DNA from: an uncultured bacterium
GTDB taxonomy: Bacteria; Eisenbacteria; RBG-16-71-46; CAIMUX01; WJJG01
DNA: 64,000 bases
Direction of reading: 5' to 3'
NCBI GenBank assembly: GCA_964506245.1
Contig: CAZDKK010000014.1
Location: 21,792 to 85,791, forward strand
Shown: positions 15,167 to 60,087 of the stretch, in pieces
Layout of the letters: every line of letters begins with the position of its first letter
Numbering within the stretch: the stretch's first letter is position 1
Translations under genes and position numbers: made by a program
Notes under the pieces: model-generated
Told to the model about the DNA's origin: nothing
The model's database searches: none
Seen by the model: the letters and a program-made list of their open reading frames with translations, nothing else

Positions 15167-15181
15167 CTCTCCCCCGTCATC

Positions 15182-22957: not shown

Positions 22958-26335
<3,378 letters not shown>

Positions 26336-34874: not shown

Positions 34875-34895
34875 GGGGCTACCTCGGATCCTCCA

Positions 34896-36375: not shown

Positions 36376-40062
<3,687 letters not shown>

Positions 40063-42415: not shown

Positions 42416-42741
42416 CTGCTTCTCCCTTCTCTTCTCGGTCCTGCCGCCCACTACTCGATCGATCTGGAGAAGTCCGGTCAATCGACTGACAAGGCCGCTG
42501 GGCCTGGGTCGATTACACACGTCAAGTATGCGACTGGCCCAGGCAAATGGGCAAGTGGGAAGGCGAGCCTGGAGTTCCCGGCGCGAGTCGCGCTCCGTTC
42601 CCCTCGGTCGTCCGGGCGGCAGCCTTCCGGGTCATGCGGGGCCCCGCGCCGCTGTTGTCACGCCCGGCGCGGGGACCTATGCTGGCGGTCGTCATGCGCG
42701 ATCCCGTTCACATCCCAGGCGTGGCCCGCAGGCGATCGGCG

Positions 42742-44192: not shown

Positions 44193-45359
44193 ATGTCACC
44201 CATGTCCATTTCCCATCTCGCTTTCTCGTCTCTCGCTCGCGGTCCGCGGCGGTGGGGCGCCGGCGGTCTGCGGCCGATGACGACTCTCCTGATTCTCCTG
44301 GCGATCGCGCTCCCGGTCGGGACACCGGCGCCGCTGGCCCAAGAGGGCGAGGGGGAGGGCGCGGGCTGCGACCTGCTCGTCCAGCGCGCGCTCGAGTCCC
44401 TGATCAGCGACCGTTACCGCGAGGCCTTGACCTACGTCGAGCAGGCCTTTGGCGTCGCCCAGGCCGAGCCGGCCTGTCAGGCCCGCTGCCTCCAGACGCG
44501 CTCCTGCACATACCTGCGCATGGGTGAGCGGGAACAGGCGATCCAGTCGCTGTCGCAGCTCTTCGACATCAACCCCAACCCGCCCTACGACGGCCGCATG
44601 TTCCCGCCCGCGATGAACCGCCTCTTCCGCGCGGTGCGCGACTCGTTCATGCAAGCGGGCACGATGGACATCGGCACCGTCGCCGTGCTGGACTTCAAGG
44701 TCCTCAACCCCGGCAAGTATCGCTACCAGGACTACGACTACGACGCGCTCGGACAAGCGCTGCAGATGATCATCAGCACGGACATCATCGAGTCGACGAA
44801 TCTGTCGGTGGTGGACCGCACCAACATGAAGGACGTGCTGGCGGAGCTGCAGCTCAGCTCGAACGCCGATCTGACCAACCAGCAGAACCGCACCCGTCTG
44901 GGGCAGCTCCTGAACGCGCACGCCTTCGTCACCGGGCAGATCGCGTTGTTCAGCAAGGACCAGATCCGGATCGACATCCAGGTCATCCATGCGGCCACGA
45001 GCCGTGTTCTGGCCCGCCACTACGAGGGGCCATTCAGCGGCGACCCGCACAACCTGCTCGAGCTGCAGCGCGGGGTCCTCGCCGCGGTGACGGAGGCTTT
45101 GAACGAATTCCGCACCGAGGTGAAGTCGACCGACTTGCTGGCGCCCGATCCGATCTACTACGACAAGCTCGAGAAGTCGCGCCGTGCCGGCAAGCAGTAC
45201 ATGGAAACCTGGCTGCTGCAGGGGCAGGCGCTGGCCCTCGAGGACAAGCACGATCTGAAAGGCGCAATGAAGATCTGGGAGAAGGTGGCCAAGCTGGATC
45301 CCGACAACGAGGTCGCCCGCGCGCGCGTCTGGGCCATCAAATCCGAGATCGGGGGGTGA
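44193..45359 (+). CDS. Periplasmic protein with CsgG/LpoB/TolB-N-like domain (paralog 1 of 3)
   Basis: GGGAGG RBS 6 nt before ATG 44193; hydrophobic export segment LLILLAIALPVGTPAPLAQ. Core TVAVLDFKVLNPG...DALGQALQMIISTDIIESTNLSVVDRTNMKDVLAELQLSSNADL. Confidence 0.55.
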   Translation: MSPMSISHLAFSSLARGPRRWGAGGLRPMTTLLILLAIALPVGTPAPLAQEGEGEGAGCDLLVQRALESLISDRYREALTYVEQAFGVAQAEPACQARCLQTRSCTYLRMGEREQAIQSLSQLFDINPNPPYDGRMFPPAMNRLFRAVRDSFMQAGTMDIGTVAVLDFKVLNPGKYRYQDYDYDALGQALQMIISTDIIESTNLSVVDRTNMKDVLAELQLSSNADLTNQQNRTRLGQLLNAHAFVTGQIALFSKDQIRIDIQVIHAATSRVLARHYEGPFSGDPHNLLELQRGVLAAVTEALNEFRTEVKSTDLLAPDPIYYDKLEKSRRAGKQYMETWLLQGQALALEDKHDLKGAMKIWEKVAKLDPDNEVARARVWAIKSEIGG

Positions 45360-45372
45360 GGAGGTCGCGCGG

Positions 45373-46536
45373 GTGATGTTCCTCCATCGGCCGCGGTGCT
45401 GGGTGGGTGCGGTCCGCCCGGTTTCCCTCGCAGGGGTGCTCTGGGTTGCGTGCCTGGGGATCGCTTCGCCGCGCGCGGATGAACGGGGCGCGCCGCCGCC
45501 CGCGGACCTGTTCGACCTGGTGGCCGGTCACCGGCTCGATCAGCTTCTGGCCCTGGCCGGCGCGGAGCTGGATTCGGCGGAGATCCCGATCGCGCGCAAG
45601 CTCGACCTCCTGCGCGCGCTCGCCAGCGCGCACCTCGCCGAGGCCGAGGCGCGAGGTGATGCCGCCCACCGCGAGAGCGCCCGATCGGCGATGATCGCCA
45701 TGCTCAAGCTGGATCCACAGGCCGACTTCGTCCCCGGGTACCGTTTCCCGCCCCAGGTGCACGCACTCTTCCGCAAGGTCCGCGACGAATCGCGCGCGGG
45801 AGAGGAAATCGTGGCCGATCCGCGCCGCGTGGCGGTCGCTCCTTTCTACCTCGTCGACCTGGGCGCGAGCGGGCGGTTCGATTGGCGCGAGTACTGCGAA
45901 GCACTCACCTTCATGATCACGACCGATCTCGATCAGGTCCCCGGCCTGACCATCTTGTCACGCGAGCACATGGAGTCGATCCGGGGCGAGCTGGCGCTCT
46001 CGTCGCAGGCCGACTTGGTCTCGGCCGAGAATCGGATCCGCTTGCAGCGACTCCTGTCCGCCTCCTCGTTCGTCTACGGCGAGGTTCAGGCGCTGCCGGG
46101 TGACGAGATCTATCTTGAAGTGCGCTGGGTGCAGACCGAGTCAGGCGCGGTGCTCGCCGCGTATCACGATCGGGCGCGCATTCGCAAGGGGGCGGATCTC
46201 CTCGAACTCGAACACGGCGTGATCCTGGACGGGCTCCTCCCCGCCATGCTGGAGGGGCTCGGCCTCACGCGGGCGGGTGCGGGCGTCAGCGAGGTGCTGC
46301 AGCGCAAGCTGGCACAGGCAGCCAAGGGCGATACCTACTTGCACTACATCGCGGCCGTCGCCCGTGCGACCACGGCCGAGCAGTCGGGCGACATGGCCGA
46401 GGCCCTGCGGCAGTGGGGAGCTGCCAGCCGCGATTTGCCCGCAGACGCCGCCCCAGCCGAGCGCATTCGCGCGCTCAAGATGTTCTACGAGGGGGCGGAC
46501 AGCGACAGCTTGCTCAACCGTTCATCAGGAGGATGA
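45373..46536 (+). CDS. Periplasmic protein with CsgG/LpoB/TolB-N-like domain (paralog 2 of 3)
   Basis: Signal peptide. Core VAVAPFYLVDLGASGRF...CEALTFMITTDLDQVPGLTILSREHMESIRGELALSSQADL is collinear with paralog 1. Separated from its neighbours by 14 and 5 bp. Confidence 0.55.
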   Translation: MMFLHRPRCWVGAVRPVSLAGVLWVACLGIASPRADERGAPPPADLFDLVAGHRLDQLLALAGAELDSAEIPIARKLDLLRALASAHLAEAEARGDAAHRESARSAMIAMLKLDPQADFVPGYRFPPQVHALFRKVRDESRAGEEIVADPRRVAVAPFYLVDLGASGRFDWREYCEALTFMITTDLDQVPGLTILSREHMESIRGELALSSQADLVSAENRIRLQRLLSASSFVYGEVQALPGDEIYLEVRWVQTESGAVLAAYHDRARIRKGADLLELEHGVILDGLLPAMLEGLGLTRAGAGVSEVLQRKLAQAAKGDTYLHYIAAVARATTAEQSGDMAEALRQWGAASRDLPADAAPAERIRALKMFYEGADSDSLLNRSSGG

Positions 46537-46540
46537 TCGG

Positions 46541-47852
46541 CGTGAAAGCTCGTCTCATGGCGCGGCTCTGGCTGATATGGCTGATGCCGCTGGCAACGCT
46601 GGCGGGGTGCGCCGGGCGGGGTGCGTCGTTCGATCCCGCGGGGGGAAGCCGCGCGGCCTGGGTGGCTGAGTTGCCCGCGCTCGAGCAGGAAGCGGCCACC
46701 CGGCCGGACGACCCCGGTGCGCTCGGCCGCCTGGCGCTGGCCTACTTCATGGCCGATCGCTTCGAGGAGGCGGCCGCGACCGCGGCGCGCGCTCGCGAGG
46801 TCAACCCCCGCGACGGAACGGCGTGCTACGTCGAAGCGCTGCTCTTCGAGCGCGCGGGCGACTGGCGCCGGGCGGACGAGATCTACGCGGCGCGTGAGAC
46901 CCTGGCGCCGATCAGCGTCGAGCTCGAGCGGCTGATGCGCGCCCGCCACGAGATCGCCGCCCGCGAGATCATCCGGGCCGGGATCAAGGCCGACCTCGCC
47001 GCCGCCCACGGCCGCGCGCCCGAGGTCGAGCCCAACGCGCTCGTCGTGCGCCGGTTTCTGCCCGTCAGCGCCGCGCGCCGCGATTCGGTGCTCGCGGTGG
47101 GCATCACGCACTTCTTCACCCAGGCCTTCGCCGAGATCGACACCCTCACCGTGATCGACGAAACGCGGCGCCGGCTGCTCGAGGACGAGATCGCCCTCAG
47201 CTCGAGCGATGCGCTCGATCCGGGAGCGCGGCTCGTCGCGCGCACGATCGGCGCCGGCCTCGCGCTGGCGGGTCGTTCGGGCACCGACTTCCCCGACAGC
47301 GATCGCGTCGCCATCGTCTACCAGCTCGATGACCTCGCGCTGGAGCCGAAGAGCGAGTCTTGGCGCGGCACGCGTGAAATGGTGCGGATCGAGGCGCCCA
47401 CCCGCTACATCTTGACCGACGTGGGTCGCGAGGTCGTGCGCATCGCCCAGGAGCAGCTCCACCTGAGCCTGGCCCCGGCGGTGGCGGCACGGCTCGCCCA
47501 GCCGCCCACCAAGGCCTTCGCCGCCTTCATGGCCTACTCGGAGGGTCTGCTGGACGAGGGCCGCCGGGAGTACGGCAAGGCATTCGAGCGCTATCGCGAG
47601 GCGGCGCGCATCGACCCGGGCTTCGCGTGGGCTGGCGCGGCGGCCGAGCGCGTCGCGGGCGCGGGCGAACGCGGCGAGGCGCTGCCGCCGGCCGAGACGC
47701 CGCCTTCCGGGGAGGCCGGCGACCTCGAGCAGCAGGCCACGGAGATCGCCGGCCAGCAGGTTGACGATGTGCCCACGGGACACAACGAGCAGCCGAGCCC
47801 GCTGCCTCCGCTCGAGACCGAACGCGTGCGCATCGTCGTCCGGCCGCGGTAG
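46541..47852 (+). CDS. Lipoprotein with TPR-like N-region and CsgG/LpoB/TolB-N-like domain (paralog 3 of 3)
   Basis: GTG 46541 is 9 nt after AGGAGG (the ATG at 46533 abuts the RBS); lipobox LATLAGC. Core ALVVRRFLPVSAARRDSVLAVGITHFFTQAFAEIDTLTVIDETRRRLLEDEIALSSSDAL. Confidence 0.5.
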
Positions 47853-47864
47853 AAGGAGGGAGGC

Positions 47865-49061
47865 ATGCCGAGAGTCGCCGTCGCCGCGTTGATCGGCGTG
47901 ATCGTGGGCTGCGTCGCCATCCCGTTGATCGGCACGGTCGTGGGCAGCGCCGGGACAGCGGCTGCTGCGGAGGGAACAGCGGGCGCGGGCGTCGAGCTGC
48001 GATCGTGGACGGTCGACCTTCCCGGCGCCGACGCAACCTTCGAGCAGACGCTCGTCTCCACGCGCATCGAGGTTCCCCATTTGTGGGGCCCGCTCGCGCT
48101 GCGCGGCTACCTGCCCCTCGCCACGAGCCGCGACGACGAGCTCGACACCGAGATCAGCGGCGCGGGCGATGCCCAGGTGCGCCTGATGTGGCCTGCGTCC
48201 GGCACGGCCTGGACCCTCAGCCTCGGCGCCGATTTCCCGACCGGCCGGACCGGACTCACCACGACCGAGGCCCTGGTCGCCACCCGCATGCTCGGCAGCC
48301 GCGTGCTGGACTTCGGCCTCAAGCGCCCCGGCGAAGGCTTCGACCTGATGCTGGGGGCGTCCCGTGCAATCCGCGCCGGTCGCACCACGGTCGCCGGCGT
48401 CGCCTTGGCCGGTCACCTCAAGGGCGACTACGCGCTCTACGAGGAGGACGGCGTCGAGCACACGGCCTCGCCGGGCAATCGCATCCACGTCGCCCTCTCG
48501 TTGCTCGCCCGCGAGCATCCCGAGGATCCTGACTGGGACCTCGACCTGACGCTGGGCGGACAATGGGCCGGCGACTACACGCTCGAAGAACGCGGCGGAG
48601 AGATCACGGTCGCGGAGGGGGCGCTGGGGACGCTGGATGCCTCGTACAGACACCGCGTGGGCGAGGAAGGGCGACTCTCGCTCTCCGCGCACCTCCTCGC
48701 GCGCGACCACGACGAGCTCACCGGCGGCAGGGCGATCGAGACGGAGTTGCTCGGGCTCTCGACGCGCTGGGTGACGGCGCTGGGGTTGGGCTACGGGCGC
48801 CCCCTCGGCACCTGGGCCGATATCTCGGCCGGCGTGAGCTACGCCCTTTACTGCAACGACCCGGCAGGCGACCTCAACAGCGACGTGACCGCGCTCGATC
48901 TGGGGCTGCACCGCGCGCTCGGCGAAAACCTGCAGTTGAACGCCTCCGCCGAGTACGCCTTCGGAAACACGATGTGGAGCGAACTGGGCGGAGACGGTGC
49001 GGCGGACCGGCGCCCGCTGACAGGAACGACTCTGGGGATCGGCCTGGAGCTTGTCTTCTAG
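47865..49061 (+). CDS. Outer-membrane beta-barrel protein
   Basis: AAGGAGGGAGG RBS; signal peptide. Alternating hydrophobic beta-strand pattern; C-terminal ...LGIGLELVF with terminal Phe typical of OMPs. Confidence 0.55.
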   Translation: MPRVAVAALIGVIVGCVAIPLIGTVVGSAGTAAAAEGTAGAGVELRSWTVDLPGADATFEQTLVSTRIEVPHLWGPLALRGYLPLATSRDDELDTEISGAGDAQVRLMWPASGTAWTLSLGADFPTGRTGLTTTEALVATRMLGSRVLDFGLKRPGEGFDLMLGASRAIRAGRTTVAGVALAGHLKGDYALYEEDGVEHTASPGNRIHVALSLLAREHPEDPDWDLDLTLGGQWAGDYTLEERGGEITVAEGALGTLDASYRHRVGEEGRLSLSAHLLARDHDELTGGRAIETELLGLSTRWVTALGLGYGRPLGTWADISAGVSYALYCNDPAGDLNSDVTALDLGLHRALGENLQLNASAEYAFGNTMWSELGGDGAADRRPLTGTTLGIGLELVF

Positions 49062-49091
49062 GACGACCGCCCCGCCAGCAAGGTGAGACGC

Positions 49092-52000
49092 ATGATTGCG
49101 CACTTCACGCTCGCTCGTCGCGCGGGCCCGCGGGTTCTGTGGGCGGCGCGAATCGCGTTCTGCGTACTGGTCCTGGTTGGCCCCACCAGCTGCGATCGGG
49201 ACACGGCCACGGTTCCCCAGCACGTCCCCAATGGCGGCTTCGGCGTCGGCCTCTGGCTTCCGCCGGATGGCGCCTGGGATGGACAAGTGCAGGCCGCGCT
49301 GCAGGACTCCTCCCAAGTGTGGCTCTACCTGCTGGGCGCCGATCCCCCGTCCCGGTTCAGCGAGCGCCCGCACCCTGACAATCCAGCGCGGCCGCCCTAC
49401 GCCCGCGCGTCGGCGGGCTTGTCCGGCGACATCGTGCTCGAGATCGATCCGCTCGACCAAGCGACTTGGTGGCGCGTCTTCGTGCGTCGCGGCGGGCTGC
49501 TCGGCCAGACCACGTTCACCCTCGCGCCGGAGGATCGCGAGCACATCGCCAATCTGATGCTCGCGCCCGAGACGGCCGTGGAAGACGGCCTCGTGGTCTA
49601 CGCCGGCCTGCCGGTCGCCCAGGGCGGGTCGCCGCCCGACGCGAGCGGATCCCTCGACGCGGGGGTGACGCTGCTCTTCCCGGTGGCCGTCGAGAACCCC
49701 ACGGCGATCGACGGCCTGTCCTTCGCCTACGCCCTCGACCTCTCCGTCGAGAGCACCGTGTACGTCGATCCCGGCAGCAGGCTGTGTGCGGGCGGGGACA
49801 GCCTCGCCTATGTGTTCTTCGTGACGCCCCTCGATGCGCAAGGCGGATGCCGGCGATTCTCCCTCAGCCTGCGTCGCGCCGAGGGCCCAGGACTCGTTGC
49901 GCCTGTCGCCGCCGGCGCCGACGTTCTCTTCTACATCGCGGCCGCGGGCGACACCGCCGGCGCGAGCTTGTGTCTCGACCGCACCTCCGTGCGCTTCAAG
50001 GTGGGCGCCGAGGAAGACACGGTACCGGCCCATCGTGTCGTGGGACCGGCCGAGTGCGAGTATCCGGTCTGCGAGGCGGCCATCTCGAGCCCGATGTCGG
50101 GCGAAGTGCTGTGCGCCGGCGCGGCTGCGACCATCACCTGGACCACGAACGCCTGCTGCGGATCGACCGTGGGAATCGCCCTCCTCCACGACCGCGTGGT
50201 CTGCCGCACGATCGCGGCGACCACCGCCAATGACGGCGAGCACGTCTGGACCGTCACCGGCTGCGGGGAGGCGCAATCCGACTACCAGATCGCGCTCCTC
50301 GATGCGAGCCAGGCGATCATCGCGGCAACGACGGGCGGCTTCAGCATCGAGCCGGGCTGCCGCATCGCCGTGACCGCCCCAGCCGGCGGTGAGCGCTATA
50401 CCGAGGGCGAGAGCCGGATCCTGCAGTGGCAGCCGGGCGGGTGTTGCGGGGACGAAGTGCGACTCGAGCTGCTCAGCGAAGGCGAACCCTGCCTGACGAT
50501 CGCCGCTACCACCGAGAACGACGGCATGTTCTCCTGGACGGTGGCGCCCTGCAGTGAGATGTACAGCGCCTATCGGCTGCGCGTGACCGATCTCGAGACG
50601 CAGGCGATCGGAGAAAGCGGCCAGAACTTCTCCATCTTTCCAGCCTGCGCGCCAATCGTCGACTACCCCAACGGCGGCGAGACATTCTGCGTCGGACAAC
50701 CCGAGACGCTGACCTGGATGGGCTTCGGATGTCAGGGTCCCATGCGGGTCGAGCTGCTGCGGGACGGCGAGTCGTGCCTCACCATCGCAGAGGATGCGCC
50801 CAACACCGGGAGCTACGAGTGGACCCCGGTGCCCTGCGAGCAGGGCGCCGGGGAATACTCGCTGCGGATCGCAGACCAACAGACCGGCGCCGCCGACACG
50901 AGCGCCGCGCCCTTCACGATCGCGCCGGCTTGCTCGCTTGGTGTCACAAGCCCGACCGCAGGCCAGGGTTTCTGCCCGGGGGATCCGGTCACGATCACCT
51001 GGACCGTCGCGACCTGCTGCGGGCCGTCTGTGGGTATCGAGCTGCTGCACAACGGTGTGAGCTGCCTGACGATTGTAGACAGCACGCCGAACAACGGGTC
51101 CTACGCCTGGATCGCTGAGCCATGCGAAGGCACAACCGGCGCGGCCCCGGCGTACAGCATCCGGGTCACCGACCCCGAGACGGAGGCGACAGGCACGAGC
51201 CCGGGGTTGTTCACGATCGGCACCTGCGAGCCGGCGATCACTGGTCCCGCCCCGGGCGCGGAGTTGTGCTTGGGCAGCACCGTGGAGGTGACCTGGACGG
51301 CCGCCGAGTGCTGCGGCGAGCTGGTGCGCGTGGAACTGCTGTGCGACGGCCTTGCTTGCGGGGTGATCGCCGATTCGACCGCCAACGACGGGTCGCTCCT
51401 GTGGACCGTGGGCGAACCCGGCTCTGCGGGTGTCAACTTCGGACTGCGGGTGACCGACCTGGAGAGCGGCAACTCCGGCACGGTCGCGCCCTTCGGGATC
51501 GCTCCGAGCTGCGCCATCGTGGTGACCGGCCCCACCGTGCAAGACGAGGTCTGCGAGGGCGCCCCGATCGAGGTGACCTGGACTGCGTCGAGCTGCTGTG
51601 CATCCCAGGTGAGCATCGAGCTCCTGCTCCTGGGGGATCCCTGCCTGACGATCGCTGCATCCACCGAGAACAACGGCCTCTACCTCTGGACGCCCGAGCG
51701 CTGCGACGGGGCGACCGAGGGCTACACGATCCGCGTCGCCGAGATCGGCGGGCAGATCGCCGGCGAGACCCCCGCGGCCTTCACCATCGGCCCGCCGTGC
51801 GCGATCGCGATCACCAGCCCCACCCCCCAGGCCACGCTGTGCGAGGGCGACCAGCTCGACATCACCTGGTCGGCCAGTGCCTGCTGCGGCGACCTCACGC
51901 GGATCGAGCTCCTGCTCAACGGCACGGTCTGCGAAACGATCGCGACCGTGCTCCAGGGCAGCTCCTATGCGTGGACCGTCGCCGCCTGCGGATCGCCCAC

Positions 52001-53231
52001 CGACAACCACGGCGTGCGCGTCACCAACGTCTCCACCGGGCAATCGGACGAGGTCACGGGCCTGACGATCCACCCGGCCTGCGCCCTGGATCTGACCTAT
52101 CCGGACGGCGGTGAGACGCTGTGCGCCGGAGAGACGGTCGAGATCCTGTGGACTTATGGCGCCTGCTGCGGCCGCACCGTTGCGATCGATTTGCTGCGCG
52201 ACGGCATTTCCTGCCGCAGCATCGCGACAGCGGCGGCCAACACAGGCCACTACGCGTGGACCGTCGGCGGCTGCGGGACCGCAACCCAGGGGTACCAGGT
52301 CCGCGTCCGGGACCTCTCCACCATGACGGAGGCGACGAGCGCCGTGACCTTCTCGGTCGAGGCCGAGTGCGCCATCACCATCACCAGCCCGGGCTACGGC
52401 GACGAATATTGCGCCGGCGATTTGGTCGACATCGAGTGGCTGGCCTCGTCCTGCTGCCCCGACACCTTCACGGTCGAACAGCTTTGCGACGGCGCGGTCT
52501 GCGCAACGATCGCCGTCGGGGTCACCGGCTCGTCGTACGCCTGGGAAGCGAGCATCCCCCCGGGCAGCCTGGGCAGCTACACGATCCGCGTCCGCGGCGG
52601 GGACTACGCCGGTGAAAGCGACGTCTTCACCGTCAGCGACGAATGCATCGTGTACATCAACTATCCCAACGGGGAGGAGGAGCTGTGCGAGGGTGATCCG
52701 ATCACGATCACGTGGGGTCACGAGCTGTGCTGCGGATCGTCCGTCGGAATCGCGCTCCTGCGCGAGGGGGTGGTAGTGGATGTCATCGCCTCGTCGACCG
52801 CCAACGACGGCTCGCACCCCTGGACACCGGAGCGGTTCAACTCGAGCTCGGTGGGCTACCAGATCCAGATCACGGACTTGCAGACCGGCGTCGTGGATCT
52901 GTCGGATGCCATGTTCCGCATCAACCCCGAGTGCTACATCGACGCCAACGCGCCGAACGGTGGTATGTACTATCCTGAAGAGCCGGTCACCATCGCGTGG
53001 GACTACAGCCCCTGTTGCGAGGGTCCGGTTCGCATCGAGCTGCTTCTCGAGAGCGAACCCTGCGCACCGCCCCTCGTGATCGCGGCGTCGACGCCAAACG
53101 ACGGCCTCTATACTTGGCCCGCCGTGCCATGCGGGAGCGAGCCGTTCCCCTACACGGTGCTCATCACGCACCTTGGCACCGGGGTCTCTAGCACGACGCG
53201 GGAACCCTTCTGGATCACGCTGGAGGACTGA
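49092..53231 (+). CDS. Giant cell-surface protein with 11 tandem Kre9/KNH-like (Ig-fold) Cys-containing repeats
   Basis: N-terminal signal/anchor. Eleven repeats of ~95 aa share [IV]TW.......CCG..V.[IV]ELL.DG..C.TIA.ST.NDG.Y.WT...C....Y.[IL]RVTD. No T9SS CTD at the end. The GTG at 49083 is the track start; the ATG at 49092 is preferred. Confidence 0.7.
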   Translation: MIAHFTLARRAGPRVLWAARIAFCVLVLVGPTSCDRDTATVPQHVPNGGFGVGLWLPPDGAWDGQVQAALQDSSQVWLYLLGADPPSRFSERPHPDNPARPPYARASAGLSGDIVLEIDPLDQATWWRVFVRRGGLLGQTTFTLAPEDREHIANLMLAPETAVEDGLVVYAGLPVAQGGSPPDASGSLDAGVTLLFPVAVENPTAIDGLSFAYALDLSVESTVYVDPGSRLCAGGDSLAYVFFVTPLDAQGGCRRFSLSLRRAEGPGLVAPVAAGADVLFYIAAAGDTAGASLCLDRTSVRFKVGAEEDTVPAHRVVGPAECEYPVCEAAISSPMSGEVLCAGAAATITWTTNACCGSTVGIALLHDRVVCRTIAATTANDGEHVWTVTGCGEAQSDYQIALLDASQAIIAATTGGFSIEPGCRIAVTAPAGGERYTEGESRILQWQPGGCCGDEVRLELLSEGEPCLTIAATTENDGMFSWTVAPCSEMYSAYRLRVTDLETQAIGESGQNFSIFPACAPIVDYPNGGETFCVGQPETLTWMGFGCQGPMRVELLRDGESCLTIAEDAPNTGSYEWTPVPCEQGAGEYSLRIADQQTGAADTSAAPFTIAPACSLGVTSPTAGQGFCPGDPVTITWTVATCCGPSVGIELLHNGVSCLTIVDSTPNNGSYAWIAEPCEGTTGAAPAYSIRVTDPETEATGTSPGLFTIGTCEPAITGPAPGAELCLGSTVEVTWTAAECCGELVRVELLCDGLACGVIADSTANDGSLLWTVGEPGSAGVNFGLRVTDLESGNSGTVAPFGIAPSCAIVVTGPTVQDEVCEGAPIEVTWTASSCCASQVSIELLLLGDPCLTIAASTENNGLYLWTPERCDGATEGYTIRVAEIGGQIAGETPAAFTIGPPCAIAITSPTPQATLCEGDQLDITWSASACCGDLTRIELLLNGTVCETIATVLQGSSYAWTVAACGSPTDNHGVRVTNVSTGQSDEVTGLTIHPACALDLTYPDGGETLCAGETVEILWTYGACCGRTVAIDLLRDGISCRSIATAAANTGHYAWTVGGCGTATQGYQVRVRDLSTMTEATSAVTFSVEAECAITITSPGYGDEYCAGDLVDIEWLASSCCPDTFTVEQLCDGAVCATIAVGVTGSSYAWEASIPPGSLGSYTIRVRGGDYAGESDVFTVSDECIVYINYPNGEEELCEGDPITITWGHELCCGSSVGIALLREGVVVDVIASSTANDGSHPWTPERFNSSSVGYQIQITDLQTGVVDLSDAMFRINPECYIDANAPNGGMYYPEEPVTIAWDYSPCCEGPVRIELLLESEPCAPPLVIAASTPNDGLYTWPAVPCGSEPFPYTVLITHLGTGVSSTTREPFWITLED

Positions 53232-53260
53232 AGGCGGGACCTCCTGGCCCGTGCAACGGC

Positions 53261-53794
53261 TCACCCCTCCGCCGGCACCTGCCGCGTCTCCTTCACCTCC
53301 AGGAAGAACCGCTCTCCCGCCTGGAGACCGCCGGCGCCCCCCTTGATGAAAGGTCCGATCAGTATCAGCGTGAGCACGATCGATGTGAACGTGCGCGACT
53401 TGCCCTTGAACGCCTGGCGGCCTTTGATCGCCACCGGGACCTGATCCCCGCCCACCTCGATCCAACCGTCCGTGAAGACGACCTGGCCGGCTTTGCCGAA
53501 CATCCCGTTCCCTTTGGCCTCTGCGACCACGAGCACGCCCTCGGTCCCAGCCGGGACCGCCACCTGCTCGTGCACCACCACGTCACTGACGACGCGGAAA
53601 TGCACCTGGCCCTCGGCCTCGACGCGGCCACCGGTGGCATCGTCGATCATCTCGGCCTCGATCTCGCAACCCTCGCGCAGCGTGACCATCGTCTGGGCGG
53701 CAGCGGTGAGCAGCGGCAGCGGGAGCTGTCCGATGATCAGCGCGCCCATGAGGACCATCACCAACCCTCTGCGCAGGTTCTTCGCGCGAAGCAT
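53261..53794 (-). CDS. Hypothetical small membrane-associated protein
   Basis: Internal ATG 53794 with AAGGAGG RBS; N-terminal signal/TM, beta-rich middle, C-terminal hydrophobic segment SIVLTLILIGPF; last gene of the minus-strand operon. Confidence 0.4.
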   Translation of the reverse strand: MLRAKNLRRGLVMVLMGALIIGQLPLPLLTAAAQTMVTLREGCEIEAEMIDDATGGRVEAEGQVHFRVVSDVVVHEQVAVPAGTEGVLVVAEAKGNGMFGKAGQVVFTDGWIEVGGDQVPVAIKGRQAFKGKSRTFTSIVLTLILIGPFIKGGAGGLQAGERFFLEVKETRQVPAEG

Positions 53795-53808: not shown

Positions 53809-54618
53809 TTACTGCTCGATTCGATACACCACATCCGCGATTCGCTGCGGCTCTCCCCCACCCGCCTCGTAGAGGCACCAGAGGTCGTAGCGCCGCACGG
53901 GTCGGTAGGCCAACGTCGCGATCGAGATCTCGGAGCGCCGCTCGACCGGCAGCTCGCTCAGGGCGCCGCGCATGAGGCGCCGCACCGCCTTCGTCACCCG
54001 CGATGCGAGGATGCGAACCGCGGCCCCCTCGCCGAGGGCCGCCGACACTTCGGCCACTTGCTGTTGCGCCGCGGGCGACAGAGGCTCCGAGGAATTCGAG
54101 CCTTGGCCTGCGGTTGCGGCCGCCCCCGCGCTCGTGGCGGGCTGCAGCATCTTCGCGTCGATCGTCAGCGCCGCGCACTGGTCGCCTTCGAACCAGCGAT
54201 CCCGGAAGAAGCCGGCATCCTCGTAGGCGAAGGGGTCGGCACCCCCCTCCAGGTAATCATTGTGGGGGATCGTCAGGAGCTGGTGGAACCAGGCCATACG
54301 CCCACCCGCGTCTACGCCCTGTCGCAGGACTTTGCCCACCAGGTGCGTCGTGCCGGCGCCGTCATCGCTCCGGGGGATCGCGCCGGCACCATCTTCGCCC
54401 CGCGGGGTCACACTGCCCCCCACACCCGCATCCCCGCTCGGCACGGCCACGTGATACAAGGCGCCGCCGAAGTCCGGCGTCAGGATCTCGCCCCACGACT
54501 TGCACGCCTCCACGGCCTGCTGGGCGAGCTTGGGCGTAATGCCCTCGGAGCGCGAGACCAGCGTGAATCCCTGTGTGAAGGTGAACGTGCCGTAGACGAG
54601 CTGTTCGACGCGGATCAT
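53809..54618 (-). CDS. Hypothetical protein (unknown function, co-operonic with the GTPase)
   Basis: ~270 aa, GGGGA RBS, no TM helices, Gly/Ala-rich low-complexity stretches, no domain recognised. Confidence 0.45.
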   Translation of the reverse strand: MIRVEQLVYGTFTFTQGFTLVSRSEGITPKLAQQAVEACKSWGEILTPDFGGALYHVAVPSGDAGVGGSVTPRGEDGAGAIPRSDDGAGTTHLVGKVLRQGVDAGGRMAWFHQLLTIPHNDYLEGGADPFAYEDAGFFRDRWFEGDQCAALTIDAKMLQPATSAGAAATAGQGSNSSEPLSPAAQQQVAEVSAALGEGAAVRILASRVTKAVRRLMRGALSELPVERRSEISIATLAYRPVRRYDLWCLYEAGGGEPQRIADVVYRIEQ

Positions 54619-54691
54619 CACGTCCCCTTCGCCAGAGGCCTACACCGGGCGCATCCCCTGCGCCCATCGACTGCGCGTCGACGCCGCTGCA

Positions 54692-57049
54692 TCAGAGGTT
54701 CGGCAGCGCCGTCGTCAAATCGGGGAAAGCGACCGTCACCCCCAGGTTCCCGCGGAAGACATGCCGGCCGCCATCCTCCTGGATCTGGAAGAGCGCCCAG
54801 CGGCCGCTCACCTCCCACTCGTCGACGATCTTGTTGCCGGTGCTCTTCGGGTCGGTCTTCTCGATGCCGATCTTGACCGCGTCGCCCGGCTTCCAGCGCA
54901 GGCGTCCGGGCAGCCCGGGCTCGATGTCAGTCGGGTCCCAGGCGTTGGTCTCGGTGTTCCACACGCGCAGATGATAGCCCCGCGGGCACTCGCTGGCTTC
55001 GACCTTGACCAGCATGCCGCTCTTCTCGACCGCTTCGATCTTGCCGAGGAAGCGCTGGACGCGCTGCGCGTCGGGCGTGCCGGCGAAATCGCGCGTAAAG
55101 TTGCGCAGGCGCCCTTTGAACGCCTCGCTGAAACGGTAGTCCAGGCCGCTGCCCTCCATGTCCTGGATGATGCTGTCCAGCTCCTCGCCCGCGCCGGCCG
55201 ACGCCACTTCCTGGCCCAGGCCGCTCAGGCTGGACGCAATGCGCCCACCGATCGCCTGGCCGTTGACCGGACCGATGCTGCGGAGCTGCGCCGCGATGCC
55301 CGCCAGCTCGTCGGGATTGTCCTGGGCCCCGATCGCCCGCTCGAGCAGCCCGCCGATCTCGCGCACGTTGACGTAGGTCGTGCGCCACGGCCCGGTGTCC
55401 TGCAGGTCATCGGCATAGGCCTCGACGTACGCCTTGCACAGGTCGTTGATCCGCTGCAAAGCCGACCACGAGCGCCCGCCCAGACCCGCGACGCCGCGGA
55501 TGATCTGGTCGAGGTCCTGGCTGCGCACGTCCCCCATCACGCCGGTCTGCCGCTGCCGCCAGCGGCTCTGCCACTCGCTCACGTTCTCGGGCCGGAAGAG
55601 CTGCTTGATCGCCGCATCGACGTCTGCCGGGGCCGCGCGCGAGCCGGCGAGCATCGGCTGCAGGCGCCGCTCGACGAAGGCGCGGTCCCACTCGCCCTCG
55701 CGCCGCGCGAGCGTCTCGTCGCACGAGCGGTACTCCTGCGACGCGGAGGGGAACTGGTCGCGCATCTCGCGCATCGCCCGGCGGGCTTCGGAGAACTCCT
55801 CATAGGCAAGACCCGGCACCGCGTCGCGCATCTTGGCCGAGAGCGCGCGGGCCTGTTCGTACTGGAGGATGAGGCCGGCCGTCTCGCGGAATTCGGGCTT
55901 GAAGAAACCAGCCAGCAGGCTGTTGCGATAGCCCTCGAGCGCGTCGACCTTCTCCGCGGCCGTGCCGCCGCCCACGCCGCCCAGGCCGGCGAGCTTGCGG
56001 ATCTTCTGGATGCGCCCCTCGTGCCAGGCGTTGACCAGCGAGAAGAGGATGATGAACACTGCCGCCGCCCCGGCGATCCACCACTTGATCCGCTGCGCGA
56101 TGAGCGCCTTGCGCTTCTCCATGAGGAGGTGCACCGACCAGACGAAGGGCCGCTCCAGTCCGACCGGCCGCAGGTCCTTCGGCGGCCGCGTCTCGCCCGC
56201 CGGCGTGCGCTCGAGCCCGCCGGTCGAGGAGATGAAGAAGATCTGCAGGTCGGGTGACTTGGTCAGGCAGTAGTCCACGAGGGGTTTCAGCAGCGAGAGC
56301 GCGCGGTCGACCTGGTCGCGCCAGGGCAGATGGCGCGCGACGTGCGGCTGCTGCAGGACGGCCGAGACGAAGCTGTCGTAGCCGCGATAGCGCGAGTAGC
56401 GGATGGTGTCGCCGACCAGGACCACCTGGTCCTCGCCCTGGAAGCCGTCGAGCAGGTCGGCCTTGGTGATGACGACCGCCACCGGGATCTTCAGGCGATT
56501 GCGCGCGCCCTCGACGAGCTGCGCGAGCATCAGCTCGAACGAGTCGATCTTCTTGCGCCGGCGCACGCTGGCCTCGCGCCCCTCGACGATCAGGTCCTCG
56601 GCGTCGACCAGCACGAAGACGGCGTCGCAGCTCTCGAAGTATTCGAGGAACCCCTTGCCCGTCTCGACCTCGCGATCGATCGAGATGCTCTCACCCTGGT
56701 AGTCCTGCGACTCGAACGGGTAGCGGATGGTCGTGTCGATCACCGCCGTGAAGCGGTAGAGGCGCTCGGTCGCGGTGGGCGGCGGCCACTGCCCGGCGGC
56801 GAGCAGGTCGAAGTAGCTGCTCATGTCCTGGCGCGTCTGGAAGTCGTCGGTCTCGAGGGAGAAGTCGCGCCGGCCGTGTGTCTTGTGCCACAGCATCGTC
56901 AGGAAGACGGTCTTGCCCGCCCGCGTATGACCGAAGATGCCGATCTTGCGTTCTTTCGGGCGGCGTCCTCCACGCTTGGCCTGCGCCTTGGCCGCCTGTC
57001 CTTGCACCTTCTTGGCCTGCGTCGCGCCTTTCTTGAGCAACTTGAACAT
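54692..57049 (-). CDS. Membrane-anchored P-loop GTPase with large periplasmic C-terminal region (TssM/IcmF-like topology, hypothesis)
   Basis: G1 GIFGHTRAGKT, G3 DYQGE, G4-like VVITKADL. A single TM (IKWWIAGAAAVFIILFSLV) lies at ~aa 300, then ~460 aa of predicted periplasmic region. The ATG is 3 nt after the upstream gene's TGA. Confidence 0.6.
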   Translation of the reverse strand: MFKLLKKGATQAKKVQGQAAKAQAKRGGRRPKERKIGIFGHTRAGKTVFLTMLWHKTHGRRDFSLETDDFQTRQDMSSYFDLLAAGQWPPPTATERLYRFTAVIDTTIRYPFESQDYQGESISIDREVETGKGFLEYFESCDAVFVLVDAEDLIVEGREASVRRRKKIDSFELMLAQLVEGARNRLKIPVAVVITKADLLDGFQGEDQVVLVGDTIRYSRYRGYDSFVSAVLQQPHVARHLPWRDQVDRALSLLKPLVDYCLTKSPDLQIFFISSTGGLERTPAGETRPPKDLRPVGLERPFVWSVHLLMEKRKALIAQRIKWWIAGAAAVFIILFSLVNAWHEGRIQKIRKLAGLGGVGGGTAAEKVDALEGYRNSLLAGFFKPEFRETAGLILQYEQARALSAKMRDAVPGLAYEEFSEARRAMREMRDQFPSASQEYRSCDETLARREGEWDRAFVERRLQPMLAGSRAAPADVDAAIKQLFRPENVSEWQSRWRQRQTGVMGDVRSQDLDQIIRGVAGLGGRSWSALQRINDLCKAYVEAYADDLQDTGPWRTTYVNVREIGGLLERAIGAQDNPDELAGIAAQLRSIGPVNGQAIGGRIASSLSGLGQEVASAGAGEELDSIIQDMEGSGLDYRFSEAFKGRLRNFTRDFAGTPDAQRVQRFLGKIEAVEKSGMLVKVEASECPRGYHLRVWNTETNAWDPTDIEPGLPGRLRWKPGDAVKIGIEKTDPKSTGNKIVDEWEVSGRWALFQIQEDGGRHVFRGNLGVTVAFPDLTTALPNL

Positions 57050-57052
57050 GGC

Positions 57053-57964
57053 TCACTCCACCCGGCCGGCTTCTTGGTAGTAGCGCTCGAGGATCTGCAC
57101 CTGCTGTCCCTGGCGCCAGCCCCAGAAGGCCAAGGTCAAGAGGACGAGGACCACGGCGATGGCCATGTAGGCGAGCTGCATCCGGTAGACCATCTTCCAG
57201 CGGCTCAGGCGCCCGAAGGTCGCGCGCCCGCGCCCCAGCGAGGCGAACCACTTGCGCACGCGCGCCCAGAAGCCCTCGCGCGCGATGTAGCCGTGGCGCT
57301 CGAGGAAGTAGCCCAACGAGCGCCGGACCGGCGCGACCTCCTGGAAGAAGCCGGCCTCGGCCAGACGCTGTTCGAGCGTGTGCGCCTTCAGCGCGAGGTT
57401 GGGGACGTCGCTGTGGCGCACGCGCCGGCGCCCAAGCTCGAGCAGCAGCGTATCGGTCCGCGCCTCGCGGACGCTGTCGATCGTCTGATCGTCGCGCCAG
57501 TGGCCGCCGGGGTCCTTGTCCTCGAGGAAGCGGGAGACCTCGTGCACCAGGTAGTAGCGCAACCGGTCGGCATCCTGGAGCGCGGCCTCGTCGAAAATGA
57601 GCGGCACAAGCTCGTCGTAGATGAACGGCCCGTCGATGGACGAGGTCGTGCGCTTCTCCTGCGACAGCTCGTAGCCCTTGCGGTGGCCGCGACCCTCGTT
57701 GGCGTAGTTCTCGAAGAGCGTCGCCAGGAAGTGCGCGATGATGACGCGCAGGCCGGGTTTGTCGAAGTCGATCGGCTGGATCAGCTCGTAGAGCTTCTGA
57801 TCCATCTCGGTGAGGCGCGCGTCGTTGCCGCGCAGGTTCTTGAAGTCGTCCAGCACGCCGATCAGGTTGCGCTCGAGGCTGTCCTGGTTGAGCGCCCCGG
57901 GATCGCGGTCGAACGCCTCGGCCTGGCGGAAGACTTCCTCCAGTTGCTCGATGCCGACGCCCAT
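57053..57964 (-). CDS. C-terminally TM-anchored cytoplasmic protein (TssL/DotU-like topology, hypothesis)
   Basis: AAGGAG RBS 9 nt upstream of the ATG; ~260-aa helical cytoplasmic part; single TM MAIAVVLVLLTLAFWGW near the C-terminus. Confidence 0.5.
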   Translation of the reverse strand: MGVGIEQLEEVFRQAEAFDRDPGALNQDSLERNLIGVLDDFKNLRGNDARLTEMDQKLYELIQPIDFDKPGLRVIIAHFLATLFENYANEGRGHRKGYELSQEKRTTSSIDGPFIYDELVPLIFDEAALQDADRLRYYLVHEVSRFLEDKDPGGHWRDDQTIDSVREARTDTLLLELGRRRVRHSDVPNLALKAHTLEQRLAEAGFFQEVAPVRRSLGYFLERHGYIAREGFWARVRKWFASLGRGRATFGRLSRWKMVYRMQLAYMAIAVVLVLLTLAFWGWRQGQQVQILERYYQEAGRVE

Positions 57965-57999
57965 CCCGCACAGCTCCTTTCAGACTCCCGGGTCGGTGA

Positions 58000-59457: not shown

Positions 59458-59808
59458 ACCGCCAGCCCTCCTTGCGCGCGGGCAAGGCCCGTGCGGGTCG
59501 AACGATAGGGTGCCGAGGGCGCCGGGGCCGCCACGCTCAATGCCGGGAGTTTGGCACAGGGCCGGGGGGGTGTCCAGGGTGGGGATGGTGGGGGCATGGT
59601 CCCGTCCCACCCCGGCGATCCGGTGCGAGGGAACCTGGCTCCGCCGGGCGGTTTGGATGAGATCAACGGCGACCCCGGGGACGGACCTGCGGCAGCGAGC
59701 AGGCACGGGCGTGCGGCGGTGGGCGAAAGGGGCTCGTTGTCCGAGTGCGCGAGCGGCTCTCCTGTGCCCTGAAGCCCGCAGTCTGAGACCAAAGGGAGGA
59801 TACTCATC

Positions 59809-60000
59809 ATGAAGACCAACGTCGGCGGCATCGACCGCATCATTCGTTTCGTGGTGGGCGTGGCCGTCATCGGCATCGGCATCGCGACCAGCAGTTGGTG
59901 GGGCTTGATCGGGGTCGTGCCGTTGGCCACTGCGGCGATCGGCTGGTGCCCCGCCTATCTGCCGTTCGGGATCTCGAGCTGCCGCGTGAAGAGCAGGTAG
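59809..60000 (+). CDS. DUF2892 (YgaP-like) small membrane protein
   Basis: [11 protein letters not shown] 8 nt upstream. 63 aa; GIDRIIRFVVGVAVIGIGI...LATAAIGWCPAYLPFGISSC matches the DUF2892 pattern (RiiR..lG.... ..G.CP.Y...G). Confidence 0.65.
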   Translation: MKTNVGGIDRIIRFVVGVAVIGIGIATSSWWGLIGVVPLATAAIGWCPAYLPFGISSCRVKSR

Positions 60001-60087
60001 CCGCCTCATCGGGAGCAGGTCACCGCCACATTCCTCGCGGGCGCGAGTGAGCGCTGGCCAGTGACGAAGCGTTGCAGGGAGGAACTG

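Follow-up and report, generated by a model that had tools for sequence, protein, structure and literature searches.

A predicted lipoprotein of eleven Kre9_KNH/Big_7 Ig-like domains with putative disulfides between neighbouring domains

Introduction

A 64,000-nucleotide stretch of DNA from an uncultured bacterium (the window, to which all positions refer) encodes on its plus strand a long, Cys-rich repeat protein, which the original prediction described as disulfide-stapled Ig-like beads on a stalk. How is such an array held to the cell, which bonds could its cysteines form, and what might it be for? Here we address these questions by computational analysis of the gene, its neighbors and its homologs.

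Results

Gene F closes a conserved envelope cluster

Gene F (49092–53231, plus strand) encodes a signal peptide, an N-terminal module and 11 Ig-like repeats. It can start at GTG 49083, giving the 1382 aa of the ORF track, or at ATG 49092, giving 1379 aa. Because an SD-like AAGGTG lies 6 nt 5′ of the ATG and an NCBI protein of 1379 aa (P0001) is identical to the product, we take the real protein to begin at 49092; the predicted length of 1382 aa holds for the ORF track from the GTG, not for the real product. Residue numbers throughout are counted from the alternative GTG at 49083. Gene F is a real gene, as attested by its codon-position GC (GC1/2/3 = 0.63/0.56/0.87), the identical NCBI protein and five full-length orthologs (43–52% identity); the named relatives in its clade are Candidatus Eisenbacteria. 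The 2326-aa antisense ORF (46485–53465, minus strand), already regarded as an artefact, is a high-GC shadow frame and not a gene: its GC1/2/3 values are 0.878/0.551/0.664, its first codon position falls on position 3 of the sense codons, Ala, Arg and Gly make up 43% of its product, and it overlaps three supported plus-strand genes.

Gene F is the last gene of a conserved six-gene envelope cluster, encoded entirely on the plus strand. Gene A (42742–43977; ORF open from 42547) encodes a predicted lipoprotein (LGLGGC) with Big_1/PEGA matches below threshold only, and at the P0005 and P0006 loci its place is taken by a gene of similar size. Gene B (44193–45359), syntenic in two orthologous loci, encodes a secreted TPR protein with a CsgG/LpoB-like domain (Pfam TPR_2, E=3e-9; CsgG, E=7e-9, 35.7 bits, cutoff 20.8; LpoB weak), and gene C (45373–46536) is its paralog (BLASTP, 26% identity over 382 aa, E=1e-28). 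Gene D (46533–47852), which from its inferred ATG shares 4 nt with the end of gene C, encodes a TPR lipoprotein (LAGC; Pfam TPR_19), and gene E (47865–49061) a secreted 398-aa protein; both are syntenic in three loci. The gene E product, which ends in GLELVF, matches Phenol_MetA_deg below threshold (E=0.004) and has homologs only in orthologous loci, is possibly an outer-membrane β-barrel. Domain searches of genes A–E returned only TPR, the CsgG-like domain and this one barrel match below threshold. The intergenic gaps from gene B to gene F are 13, −4, 12 and 30 nt. The loci of P0005 and P0006 keep the six-gene order and that of P0010 keeps the final four genes, with unrelated flanks.

Eleven diverged Ig-like repeats

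The repeats span residues 329–1382, at 92–100 aa each, with 92–98 aa from one CC doublet to the next. The expected count of eleven Kre9/KNH-like repeats of about 95 aa was borne out: a repeat HMM found exactly 11 copies in the gene F product and in each of the five full-length orthologs, and Pfam matched both Kre9_KNH (198.8 bits, cutoff 24.6, E=2e-59, 8 stretches) and Big_7 (123.1 bits, E=7.5e-36). Pairwise identity among the 11 repeats is 25–47% (mean 36%), and Tandem Repeats Finder detected no DNA-level tandem repeat in gene F; the repeats have thus diverged. Across orthologs, repeats of the same index average 43–52% identity and those of different index 37–38%, and the Cys pattern of each repeat matches position by position in all five, in keeping with the original view that the array is old and not a recent expansion. 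An AlphaFold2 model of R1–R4 forms an extended tandem Ig rod (pLDDT 91.7, pTM 0.69, the latter rated high for a four-bead model), whose best Foldseek TM matches are extended titin I65–I70 and Robo1 Ig1–4 structures. These results support the assignment of the repeats as Kre9_KNH/Big_7 Ig-like β-sandwiches.

The mature protein contains 65 cysteines (Cys content 4.8%), arranged by repeat as follows. R1 (50067–50354, aa 329–424) has the pattern C1 C2 CC C5 C6, and the full six-Cys pattern recurs in R4 (50928–51221, aa 616–713), R6 (51507–51794, aa 809–904), R7 (51795–52076, aa 905–998) and R8 (52077–52364, aa 999–1094). R2 (50355–50642, aa 425–520) lacks C2 (Thr440) and reads C-CC-CC here and in all five orthologs; R3 (50643–50927, aa 521–615) has one Cys at the doublet (C550, C-Q-G), again as in the orthologs, which agrees with the absence of C2 from R2. 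In R5 (51222–51506, aa 714–808) and R9 (52365–52640, aa 1095–1186) C6 is replaced by Cx (C754, forming CxxxxC with C759, and C1135, respectively), and R10 (52641–52928, aa 1187–1282) lacks both C5 and C6. R11 (52929–53228, aa 1283–1382), the last domain, lacks C2. The motif first proposed for these repeats needs revision: the doublet described as invariant CC(G) occurs in 10 of 11 repeats, with R3 as the exception and Gly following in only 7; it lies four residues beyond the conserved Trp and not directly after it; and the motif at the Trp is [IVL]-x-W instead of [IV]TW.

A predicted N-terminal lipid anchor

The signal peptide (49092–49193, plus strand) ends in a lipobox-like VGPTS-C, with a non-canonical Pro at −3 and the candidate lipidated residue Cys37 at 49191–49193. 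A hydrophobic stretch followed by Cys is found at the equivalent site in 12/12 homologs with an intact N-terminus (LPGC, LATC, LTTC, LGGC). The gene F product has no LPXTG or PEP motif, Pfam and sequence inspection revealed no C-terminal sorting domain, and 2 residues separate the end of R11 from the stop, so that the predicted lack of a T9SS CTD, PEP-CTERM or LPXTG tail stands; neighboring secreted proteins do carry FlgD_ig C-terminal domains. Attachment through the N-terminus, one of the two routes originally proposed (the other being partner proteins), fits the lipoprotein-type signal, and we infer that the protein is lipid-anchored there.

Residues +2 to +5 (49194–49205, plus strand) read D-R-D-T, an acidic stretch that resembles the lipoprotein export signal of Bacteroidetes. 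The corresponding residues are QRDE, QQDE and DREE in orthologs and GDDD, SDDD, SDDS and GDES in paralogs; acidic residues fall within this stretch in 12/12 homologs, with acidity conserved at +3 to +5. In E. coli, Asp at +2 acts as an inner-membrane retention (Lol-avoidance) signal, and since the gene F product and P0010 both carry it, localization is uncertain. A periplasmic lipoprotein, held in the inner membrane or the inner leaflet of the outer membrane, whose rod serves the TPR/CsgG-like proteins as a ruler or scaffold, would account for this Asp, for the periplasmic-type TPR and CsgG/LpoB-like domains encoded upstream and for disulfide formation, which takes place in the periplasm. We regard this arrangement as unlikely, although worth keeping in view: the +2 residue is not conserved (Gln in P0004-6; Gly, Ser or Thr in paralogs), whereas the conserved acidity at +3 to +5 resembles surface-export signals. 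Moreover, a braced rod of eleven Ig domains, roughly 40–50 nm long if estimated from typical Ig-domain dimensions, would exceed a typical periplasm, and relatives have up to 24 repeats, some of them ending in β-helix or cohesin-like modules of kinds typical of surface proteins.

Cysteines of neighboring repeats occur together

We tabulated the cysteines at 236 repeat junctions in 22 homologs. C2 of repeat n and the surplus doublet Cys of repeat n+1 were both present at 149 junctions and both absent at 87, with zero exceptions (149/0/0/87; p=6e-67, a Fisher value that overstates independence because the sequences share kinship). Many of these switches fall within single proteins. In the same junction set, 53 exceptions arose when C2 was matched to the doublet within one repeat, and 50 when it was matched to the neighbor in the reverse direction. 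In addition, C5 co-occurs with C6 (OR 133) and C1 with C3b (OR 47), whereas Cx and C6 exclude each other (OR 0.09, p=1e-5). In a check set of the 142 best cluster representatives from the repeat profile search, 57 more junctions, in 12 Cys-rich proteins, fit the C2/doublet rule; in the only two misfits among the Cys-rich proteins, an extra, compensating Cys lies 2–4 residues ahead of C1 in the repeat that follows. The features that the rule predicts are kept in all orthologs, namely a last repeat without C2, as no domain follows it, and R2 without C2 alongside R3 with a single Cys. A further predicted feature, the joint occurrence of C256 of the N-terminal module with the R1 doublet, was seen in 9/9 family members.

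In DSSP analysis of the R1–R4 model, strand A′ terminates in C2, strand B (8 residues) starts three residues further on, and the doublet comes 3–4 residues past strand B, with an inter-domain linker of ~3 residues. As the two sites flank strand B, C2 and its own doublet would lie at opposite poles, with C2 near the next domain, so that by the modeled topology C2 appears unable to reach that doublet. Junction spacing is 28–29 aa in 140 of 147 stapled junctions and 26–35 aa in unstapled ones (p=2e-10). The best reading of these patterns is that the doublet contributes one Cys to a C1–C3 intra-domain bond and one to a bond with the preceding domain, giving putative inter-domain disulfides at 9 of the 10 repeat junctions; the R2–R3 junction is unstapled in all orthologs. 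This pairing scheme accounts for 64 of the 65 mature cysteines, leaving C235 (equivalent position 224 in P0004-6). The notion of disulfide-stapled beads thus survives as a pattern of Cys pairing, but the doublet does not look like a purely within-domain staple, since it would also join neighbors.

The same cysteines could in principle form only intra-domain bonds, with C2 joined to its own doublet, the domains hanging as beads on a string and the next-repeat correlation arising as a by-product of block duplication. C2 and the same-repeat doublet do co-occur strongly (OR 16.5), and the commonest pattern, all six Cys (81 of 270 repeats), fits either scheme. We nevertheless consider intra-domain pairing improbable, given its exceptions against none for next-repeat pairing, the opposite poles occupied by the two sites in the model and the constraint on linker length at stapled-scored junctions only. 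It also leaves unexplained the missing C2 of the last repeat and the occurrence of 5-Cys repeats as complementary neighbors (R2/R3 here, three pairs each in P0002 and P0003).

The N-terminal module and its role

Between anchor and repeats lies a non-repeat β-sandwich module (aa 38–328, 49194–50066, plus strand) with Cys 235, 256, 297 and 325, which probably includes a cohesin-like fold at aa ~195–313. One alternative is a scaffoldin-like platform, in which this module recruits dockerin-bearing enzymes and the Ig array is a mere spacer. This seems very unlikely to us: Pfam gave no cohesin match to the module even at E≤10, identity to cohesins is only 6–17%, no dockerin-bearing gene was detected among the scanned neighbors, and the module is membrane-proximal, adjoining the lipid anchor. 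A role for the cysteines, notably the vicinal CC pair, as functional thiols in redox chemistry or metal binding is highly implausible, for despite the unusually high Cys content and the one Cys outside the pairing scheme, cysteines are gained and lost strictly pairwise over hundreds of repeats, Cys-free arrays keep the fold family (P0019; 71 of the 142 check-set representatives average <0.5 Cys per repeat), the translation reads without a His/Cys metal or haem CxxCH motif, and the protein is exported to an oxidizing compartment.

Discussion

We somewhat favor a model in which the gene F product is an N-terminally lipid-anchored surface rod, braced between domains by disulfides and likely tethered to the outer membrane. 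The β-sandwich/cohesin-like module would form a membrane-proximal base, beyond which the eleven Ig-like domains would make up the rod. Most domains would hold two internal disulfides, one from C1 (before strand A) to one doublet Cys and one from C5 to C6; C5 would pair with Cx in R5 and R9, and R10 would do without the C5–C6 bond. C2, which closes strand A′ of domain n, would bond to the second Cys in the doublet of domain n+1, and C256 would bond the R1 doublet by the same logic. With nine of the ten repeat junctions and the base junction cross-braced, the stalk could be stiff and resistant to proteases and force, and the conserved unbraced R2–R3 junction could act as a hinge. The base may dock to proteins encoded by the five envelope genes presumably co-transcribed with gene F (TPR/CsgG-like, putative barrel). 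The weakest step is the role of the rod, as structural spacer or adhesive fibril; as no ligand-binding or enzymatic domain was found in the gene F product, adhesin or spacer is the default reading.

The stretch after the lipobox Cys resembles the lipoprotein export signal of Bacteroidetes, C-X-K-(D/E)2, SDDDD or SDDFE (PMC5080379), in that a polar or positive residue is followed by acidic ones within +2 to +5 (QRDE, DREE, SDDD and GDDD in homologs against the published QKDDE, SDDDD and SDDFE). The likeness is one of resemblance only: D-R-D-T has a single acidic residue after Arg, and demonstrations of the signal are confined to Bacteroidetes, whereas gene F belongs to a different candidate phylum. 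Cellulosomal scaffoldin cohesins differ in having no sequence-level match to the module, which is membrane-proximal and has no identified dockerin partner. Gram-positive isopeptide pilins and adhesins are LPXTG-anchored and strengthened by intra-domain Lys-Asn/Asp isopeptides, whereas the gene F product lacks LPXTG and would rely on disulfides, some of them spanning domains.

Giant adhesins with extender regions, among which MpIBP and SiiE also count, provide a further comparison. In the RTX/Lap type, Ca2+ at domain linkers stiffens the extender, secretion is of type I and RTX repeats lie at the C-terminus. Compared with such extender regions (PDB 6xi3), the gene F product has no RTX repeats, a predicted lipid anchor at the N-terminus and, putatively, disulfides as the stiffening element.

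The fungal Kre9/Knh1 and Ser-Thr-rich GPI-anchored proteins, founders of PF10342, share the ~95-aa N-terminal Ig-like domain family. In them a single such domain precedes a Ser/Thr-rich region and a GPI signal, whereas the gene F product has 11 domains, a bacterial lipoprotein signal and no Ser/Thr-rich tail. NCBI names the relative P0003 after the fungal GPI-anchored proteins; "GPI-anchored" is inapplicable here. The literature that we found mentioning PF10342 concerns fungal biology.

The closest known systems are tandem arrays of PF10342 (Kre9_KNH) and PF17957 (Big_7) in large bacterial surface proteins, which all 11 repeats match well above threshold. At E≤1e-3 the repeat profile search returned 17,966 cluster representatives, of which many have 10–56 tandem copies, whereas the junction-spanning six-Cys pattern was seen in only about 30 proteins, from Candidatus Eisenbacteria wherever the source organism is named. 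The domain family is already known, and what looks new is the putative disulfide bracing between domains; if true, it would be an uncommon means of stiffening in an otherwise common kind of protein.

Gene model and repeat array

Gene F, which encodes the lipoprotein-type Ig-repeat protein analyzed here, is one long ORF on the forward strand that begins at either GTG 49083 or ATG 49092 and ends at 53231. Its GC content at codon positions 1, 2 and 3 (0.63/0.56/0.87) is what a real gene shows in sequence of ~68% GC. We place the start at ATG 49092, because an identical protein of 1379 aa is held by NCBI (P0001) and an SD-like AAGGTG motif lies 6 nt 5' of this codon; residue numbers are counted here from the GTG and exceed those of the real protein by 3. 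The 2326-aa antisense ORF that overlaps gene F (46485..53465, reverse strand) had been called an artefact, and we likewise rejected it as a gene: its codon position 1 falls on position 3 of the sense genes (GC 0.878/0.551/0.664), its product is Ala/Arg/Gly-rich, and it overlaps three supported genes. It is a shadow frame and should stay uncalled in genome annotation.

The cysteine doublet that follows strand B recurs every 92–98 residues, and cutting at the first cysteine of each repeat divides aa 329–1382 into eleven units of 92–100 aa (R1–R11), in agreement with the near-periodic array of ~95-aa repeats of the original prediction. The suggested Kre9/KNH relationship held in a Pfam search, which matched the product to PF10342 Kre9_KNH (198.8 bits against a gathering threshold of 24.6, E = 2e-59, eight separate stretches) and to PF17957 Big_7 (123.1 bits against 24.1, E = 7.5e-36, four stretches); the repeats have the Ig-like β-sandwich fold that defines PF10342. 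An NCBIfam scan of the product returned no family model, and a PDB sequence search with a two-repeat unit gave nothing meaningful. The CC(G) motif, described as invariant and placed right after a conserved Trp, came close: CC occurs in 10 of the 11 units, the exception being R3 (C-Q-G), but Gly follows in only seven, and the distance from the Trp to the doublet is four residues, so that the two are not directly adjacent.

Cysteine co-occurrence across domain junctions

A repeat HMM, in which 270 repeats were aligned, resolved seven cysteine columns: C1, C2, the doublet (C3a and C3b), Cx, C5 and C6. C5 and C6 come and go together across these repeats (odds ratio 133); in the gene F product, R5 and R9 lack C6, keep C5 and carry a new Cx five residues before it, and R10 lacks both C5 and C6. 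C1 tracks the doublet (odds ratio 47 with C3b). Three repeats have odd cysteine counts: R2 lacks C2 but has CC, R3 has C2 but a single doublet cysteine, and R11 lacks C2. These counts make sense only if C2 of one repeat partners the surplus doublet cysteine of the next.

Scoring every contiguous junction in the 22 proteins returned by our database search (n = 236), we found C2 of repeat n and the surplus doublet cysteine of repeat n+1 both present at 149 junctions (hereafter stapled), both absent at 87 and discordant at none (p = 6e-67, a value inflated by the relatedness of the sequences). Pairing with the reverse neighbor left 50 junctions discordant. The fit is perfect within single proteins that switch state repeatedly, with 12 stapled and 9 unstapled junctions in P0002, 14 and 9 in P0003, and 4 and 6 in P0017. 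The step from the N-terminal module (aa 38–328) to R1 is accounted for in the same way, since Cys256 of the module is present in the seven family members with CC in R1 and absent in the two without it.

DSSP assignment on the predicted model places C1 just ahead of strand A. Strand A' closes with C2, and strand B, eight residues long, follows three residues later; the doublet comes three to four residues past strand B, C5 belongs to the first part of strand C', and C6 sits in the loop that follows strand E. From these strand positions, C1 and the doublet lie at the N-terminal pole of the domain and C2, C5 and C6 at the C-terminal pole, which in the model borders on the next domain, with a linker of three residues between them. 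The partner of C2 would then lie in the next domain, its own doublet being out of reach and C5 and C6 being already assigned. Of 147 stapled junctions, 140 have a spacing of 28–29 residues from the G-strand Phe to the B-strand Trp of the following domain; unstapled ones range from 26 to 35. Taken together, sequence co-occurrence and the modeled strand topology make it quite likely that C2 of each repeat forms an inter-domain disulfide with a doublet cysteine of the next.

Under this scheme, 64 of the 65 mature cysteines would be paired, in 32 bonds, with C235 left over; C297 and C325, invariant among the family members compared, presumably pair with each other. Cys235 (49785–49787), located in the cohesin-like module, could be a free thiol or engage in an intermolecular bond. 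The lone cysteine of P0004–P0006 lies elsewhere, at the equivalent of residue 224, and P0007 and P0010 have two extra cysteines there instead.

Conservation of the array and the wider family

Among the 22 proteins returned with the gene F product as query were five full-length orthologues (P0004–P0007 at 50–52% identity and P0010 at 43%), all of which share the N-terminal module and have eleven repeats, no more and no fewer. Larger paralogues have 10–24 repeats and, where named, come from Candidatus Eisenbacteria, a candidate phylum in NCBI, so that the clade taxonomy rests on the named homologues. Repeat by repeat, the gene F product and the five orthologues have matching cysteine patterns at every position, with three minor departures: the single doublet cysteine of R3 aligns to C3a in the window protein and to C3b in the orthologues, R5 of P0010 lacks C1, and in R11 of P0005 both C1 and one of the doublet cysteines are missing. 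Repeats of the same index share 43–52% identity, compared with 37–38% between different indices. Because cysteine patterns are kept by position and same-index repeats are more alike, the array is old and maintained. A recent expansion was rejected on the same comparison, on a mean pairwise identity of 36% among the eleven repeats (range 25–47%), and on Tandem Repeats Finder, which detected nothing with a ~285-nt period in the DNA. The original prediction was sound overall, in observation as in interpretation.

Several relatives join cysteine-rich repeats to other modules. P0011, P0016 and P0020 combine them with a right-handed β-helix-like region (PF02415 in P0011 and P0020), P0011 and P0016 sharing the N-terminal module of the gene F product, and P0013 and P0015 have other non-repeat modules at both ends. 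The rod thus recurs as a stalk that carries different modules.

For an independent test, we searched 1.84 billion cluster representatives with a profile built from the eleven repeats; 17,966 proteins matched at E ≤ 1e-3, of which 2,007 reached E ≤ 1e-30. Many of these proteins are giant, with up to 56 repeats, which makes the domain architecture very common; domain family and general architecture of the gene F product are ordinary. Half of the best new matches (71/142) average <0.5 Cys per repeat. Twelve of the 142 are cysteine-rich, and 57 stapled junctions in them fit the rule. Only two misfits occurred in cysteine-rich proteins (P0028 and P0030), where an extra cysteine two to four residues before the next C1 lies at the same pole and supplies the compensating partner; the others were lone cysteines in cysteine-poor proteins or truncated first hits.

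Anchoring and the two ends of the protein

The N-terminus carries a signal peptide ending in VGPTS-C37, with Pro at −3 compared with the lipobox [LVI][ASTVI][GAS]C. An equivalent cysteine follows the hydrophobic stretch in all 12 homologues with intact N-termini, where the aligned lipoboxes are more canonical (LPGC, LATC, LTTC, LGGC, FSGC and LFGC). Acidic residues are a constant feature of positions +2 to +5: DRDT in the window protein, QRDE, QQDE and DREE in orthologues, and SDDD and GDDD in paralogues. Taking as lipoprotein export signal (LES) a polar or positive residue followed by at least two acidic residues within +2 to +6 of the lipidated cysteine, we found sequences of this form in orthologues and paralogues; the window protein reads DRDT. 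In Bacteroidetes, such a signal (QKDDE, SDDDD or SDDFE) drives surface display (PMC5080379), and the acidic stretch of the gene F family resembles it, a resemblance only.

At the other end, R11 stops two residues before the stop codon, and the tail (...FWITLED) is neither Ser/Thr-rich nor hydrophobic. Pfam found no Por_Secre_tail, FlgD_ig or PEP-CTERM match in the product and a motif search no LPxTG or PEP motif, in line with the earlier view that a sorting tail is missing; a T9SS-type C-terminal domain was rejected on this result. Four other secreted proteins of the window have FlgD_ig as their C-terminal domain, among them a C25 gingipain-like peptidase (1–1767, forward), an LVIVD β-propeller (40253–42520, reverse) and a Reg_prop propeller (60001–62496, forward). 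FlgD_ig may be the C-terminal sorting domain of this lineage, and the Ig-rod lipoprotein does not carry it.

Gene cluster and genomic surroundings

Gene F is the last gene of a same-strand cluster. It is preceded by a predicted lipoprotein (gene A, 42742–43977), a protein with TPR and a CsgG/LpoB-like domain (gene B, 44193–45359), its paralogue (gene C, 45373–46536, E = 1e-28), a predicted TPR lipoprotein (gene D, 46533–47852) and a secreted protein ending in ...LELVF with a sub-threshold barrel match (gene E, 47865–49061), all on the forward strand; the gaps from B to F are 13, −4, 12 and 30 nt. In genes B and C alike, TPR-like regions at the N- and C-terminal ends flank a central CsgG/LpoB-like domain, and gene D is faintly similar to them in the same central region. 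The order A–F is repeated beside P0006 and P0005, and the last four genes recur beside P0010, with unrelated flanks. Since this order is repeated and the database search found gene E homologues only in orthologous loci, the cluster is a conserved, lineage-restricted envelope module. A PDB sequence search with genes B and E gave nothing meaningful. Slam-like and PelB/PelC-like systems were considered as possible analogies for genes B–E; identity with either was rejected, having neither profile nor sequence support.

Directly downstream of gene F, on the opposite strand, four ORFs (53809–60009) encode a GAP1-like protein (sub-threshold), a double-GTPase (DO-GTPase2, E = 7e-10), an unassigned 303-aa product and a protein matching T6SS VasE exactly at the gathering cut-off (23.4 bits); they may form a GTPase-centered conflict system. 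A CBASS-type anti-phage operon (27226–31764, reverse) lies in a lower-GC stretch at 26–32 kb (0.60–0.64 compared with about 0.68 elsewhere in the window) and comprises a SAVED-domain effector (30238–31764), a SMODS cyclase (29081–30223) and a ThiF/E1-like protein (27226–29172). With three large flanking reverse-strand genes (22958–26338, 31965–34895 and 36376–40089), encoding HEPN_Swt1+DUF499, DUF1156 and a SNF2/DEAD helicase with a NOV_C domain, these genes look like a defense island. The stretch 13613–21374 encodes a CHASE8/HAMP histidine kinase and a TonB-dependent receptor, together with a protein of 1031 aa in which a β-lactamase fold is combined with aspartyl-protease and PDZ domains.

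A putative disulfide-braced surface stalk

Our preferred reading, which we favor by a modest degree, is that the gene F product is an outer-membrane lipoprotein, probably surface-exposed, forming a stiff eleven-domain stalk braced by disulfides. The Ig-like domains would be braced internally and to one another, giving a stalk of roughly 40–50 nm (estimated from typical Ig-domain lengths) with one conserved unbraced junction after R2. The main competing view, a periplasmic scaffold, we regard as unlikely. Purely intra-domain disulfides are more improbable, as matching C2 to the doublet within one and the same repeat leaves 53 junctions discordant and C2 cannot reach that doublet in the model topology. 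Doubtful to a slightly greater degree is a cohesin-based enzyme scaffold: the N-terminal module does have the nine-stranded jelly-roll fold of cohesins, but no Pfam family, including cohesin PF00963, matched aa 38–328 at E ≤ 10, and a PDB sequence search with the module gave nothing meaningful. That the cysteines act as functional thiols is very improbable.

Extending the braced-stalk reading to the clade, we tentatively propose that a clade of Eisenbacteria-type bacteria stiffens long Ig surface rods by a disulfide ladder with a conserved unbraced hinge after the second domain. The rod would then be the distal part of an outer-membrane apparatus not described before and encoded by six genes, with two lipoproteins, a barrel and three proteins of the TPR/CsgG-like type. 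Few bacterial surface architectures are commoner than tandem Ig-like arrays, and what makes them stiff enough to reach out from the cell is under active structural study. The junction rule would let sequence alone tell rigid junctions from hinges, and disulfide bracing could be a building principle for engineered protein rods. Gene F also belongs to a conserved envelope gene cluster of a candidate phylum without cultured members, for which our literature search found ecological surveys only.

Comparison with known systems

Fungal Kre9/Knh1 proteins have one N-terminal domain, a Ser/Thr-rich region and a GPI signal, whereas the gene F product has eleven domains and no such tail, and we rejected a GPI-anchored Kre9-type protein on these grounds. 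All the literature we found on PF10342 concerns fungi, and the bacterial proteins compared here are misleadingly named 'Ser-Thr-rich GPI-anchored membrane family protein' at NCBI. With no C-terminal sorting domain, the product is not a T9SS cargo. It resembles RTX/Lap-type giant adhesins in structure only; membership in that family was rejected, as Pfam found no RTX/HemolysinCabind match in the product.

RTX adhesins are stiffened by Ca2+ at their linkers, and Gram-positive pili by intra-domain isopeptide bonds, both of them well-described routes. Domain-to-domain disulfides differ from both in principle and, if true, would be a third route to stiffness; the combination of interdomain disulfide, Ig-like domain and adhesin was not found described in our literature search, a broader search likewise giving nothing relevant, and the exception-free junction rule with the bracing it implies appears to be the new part. 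We propose that the gene F rod would work much as an RTX/Lap extender does, with disulfides in place of Ca2+.
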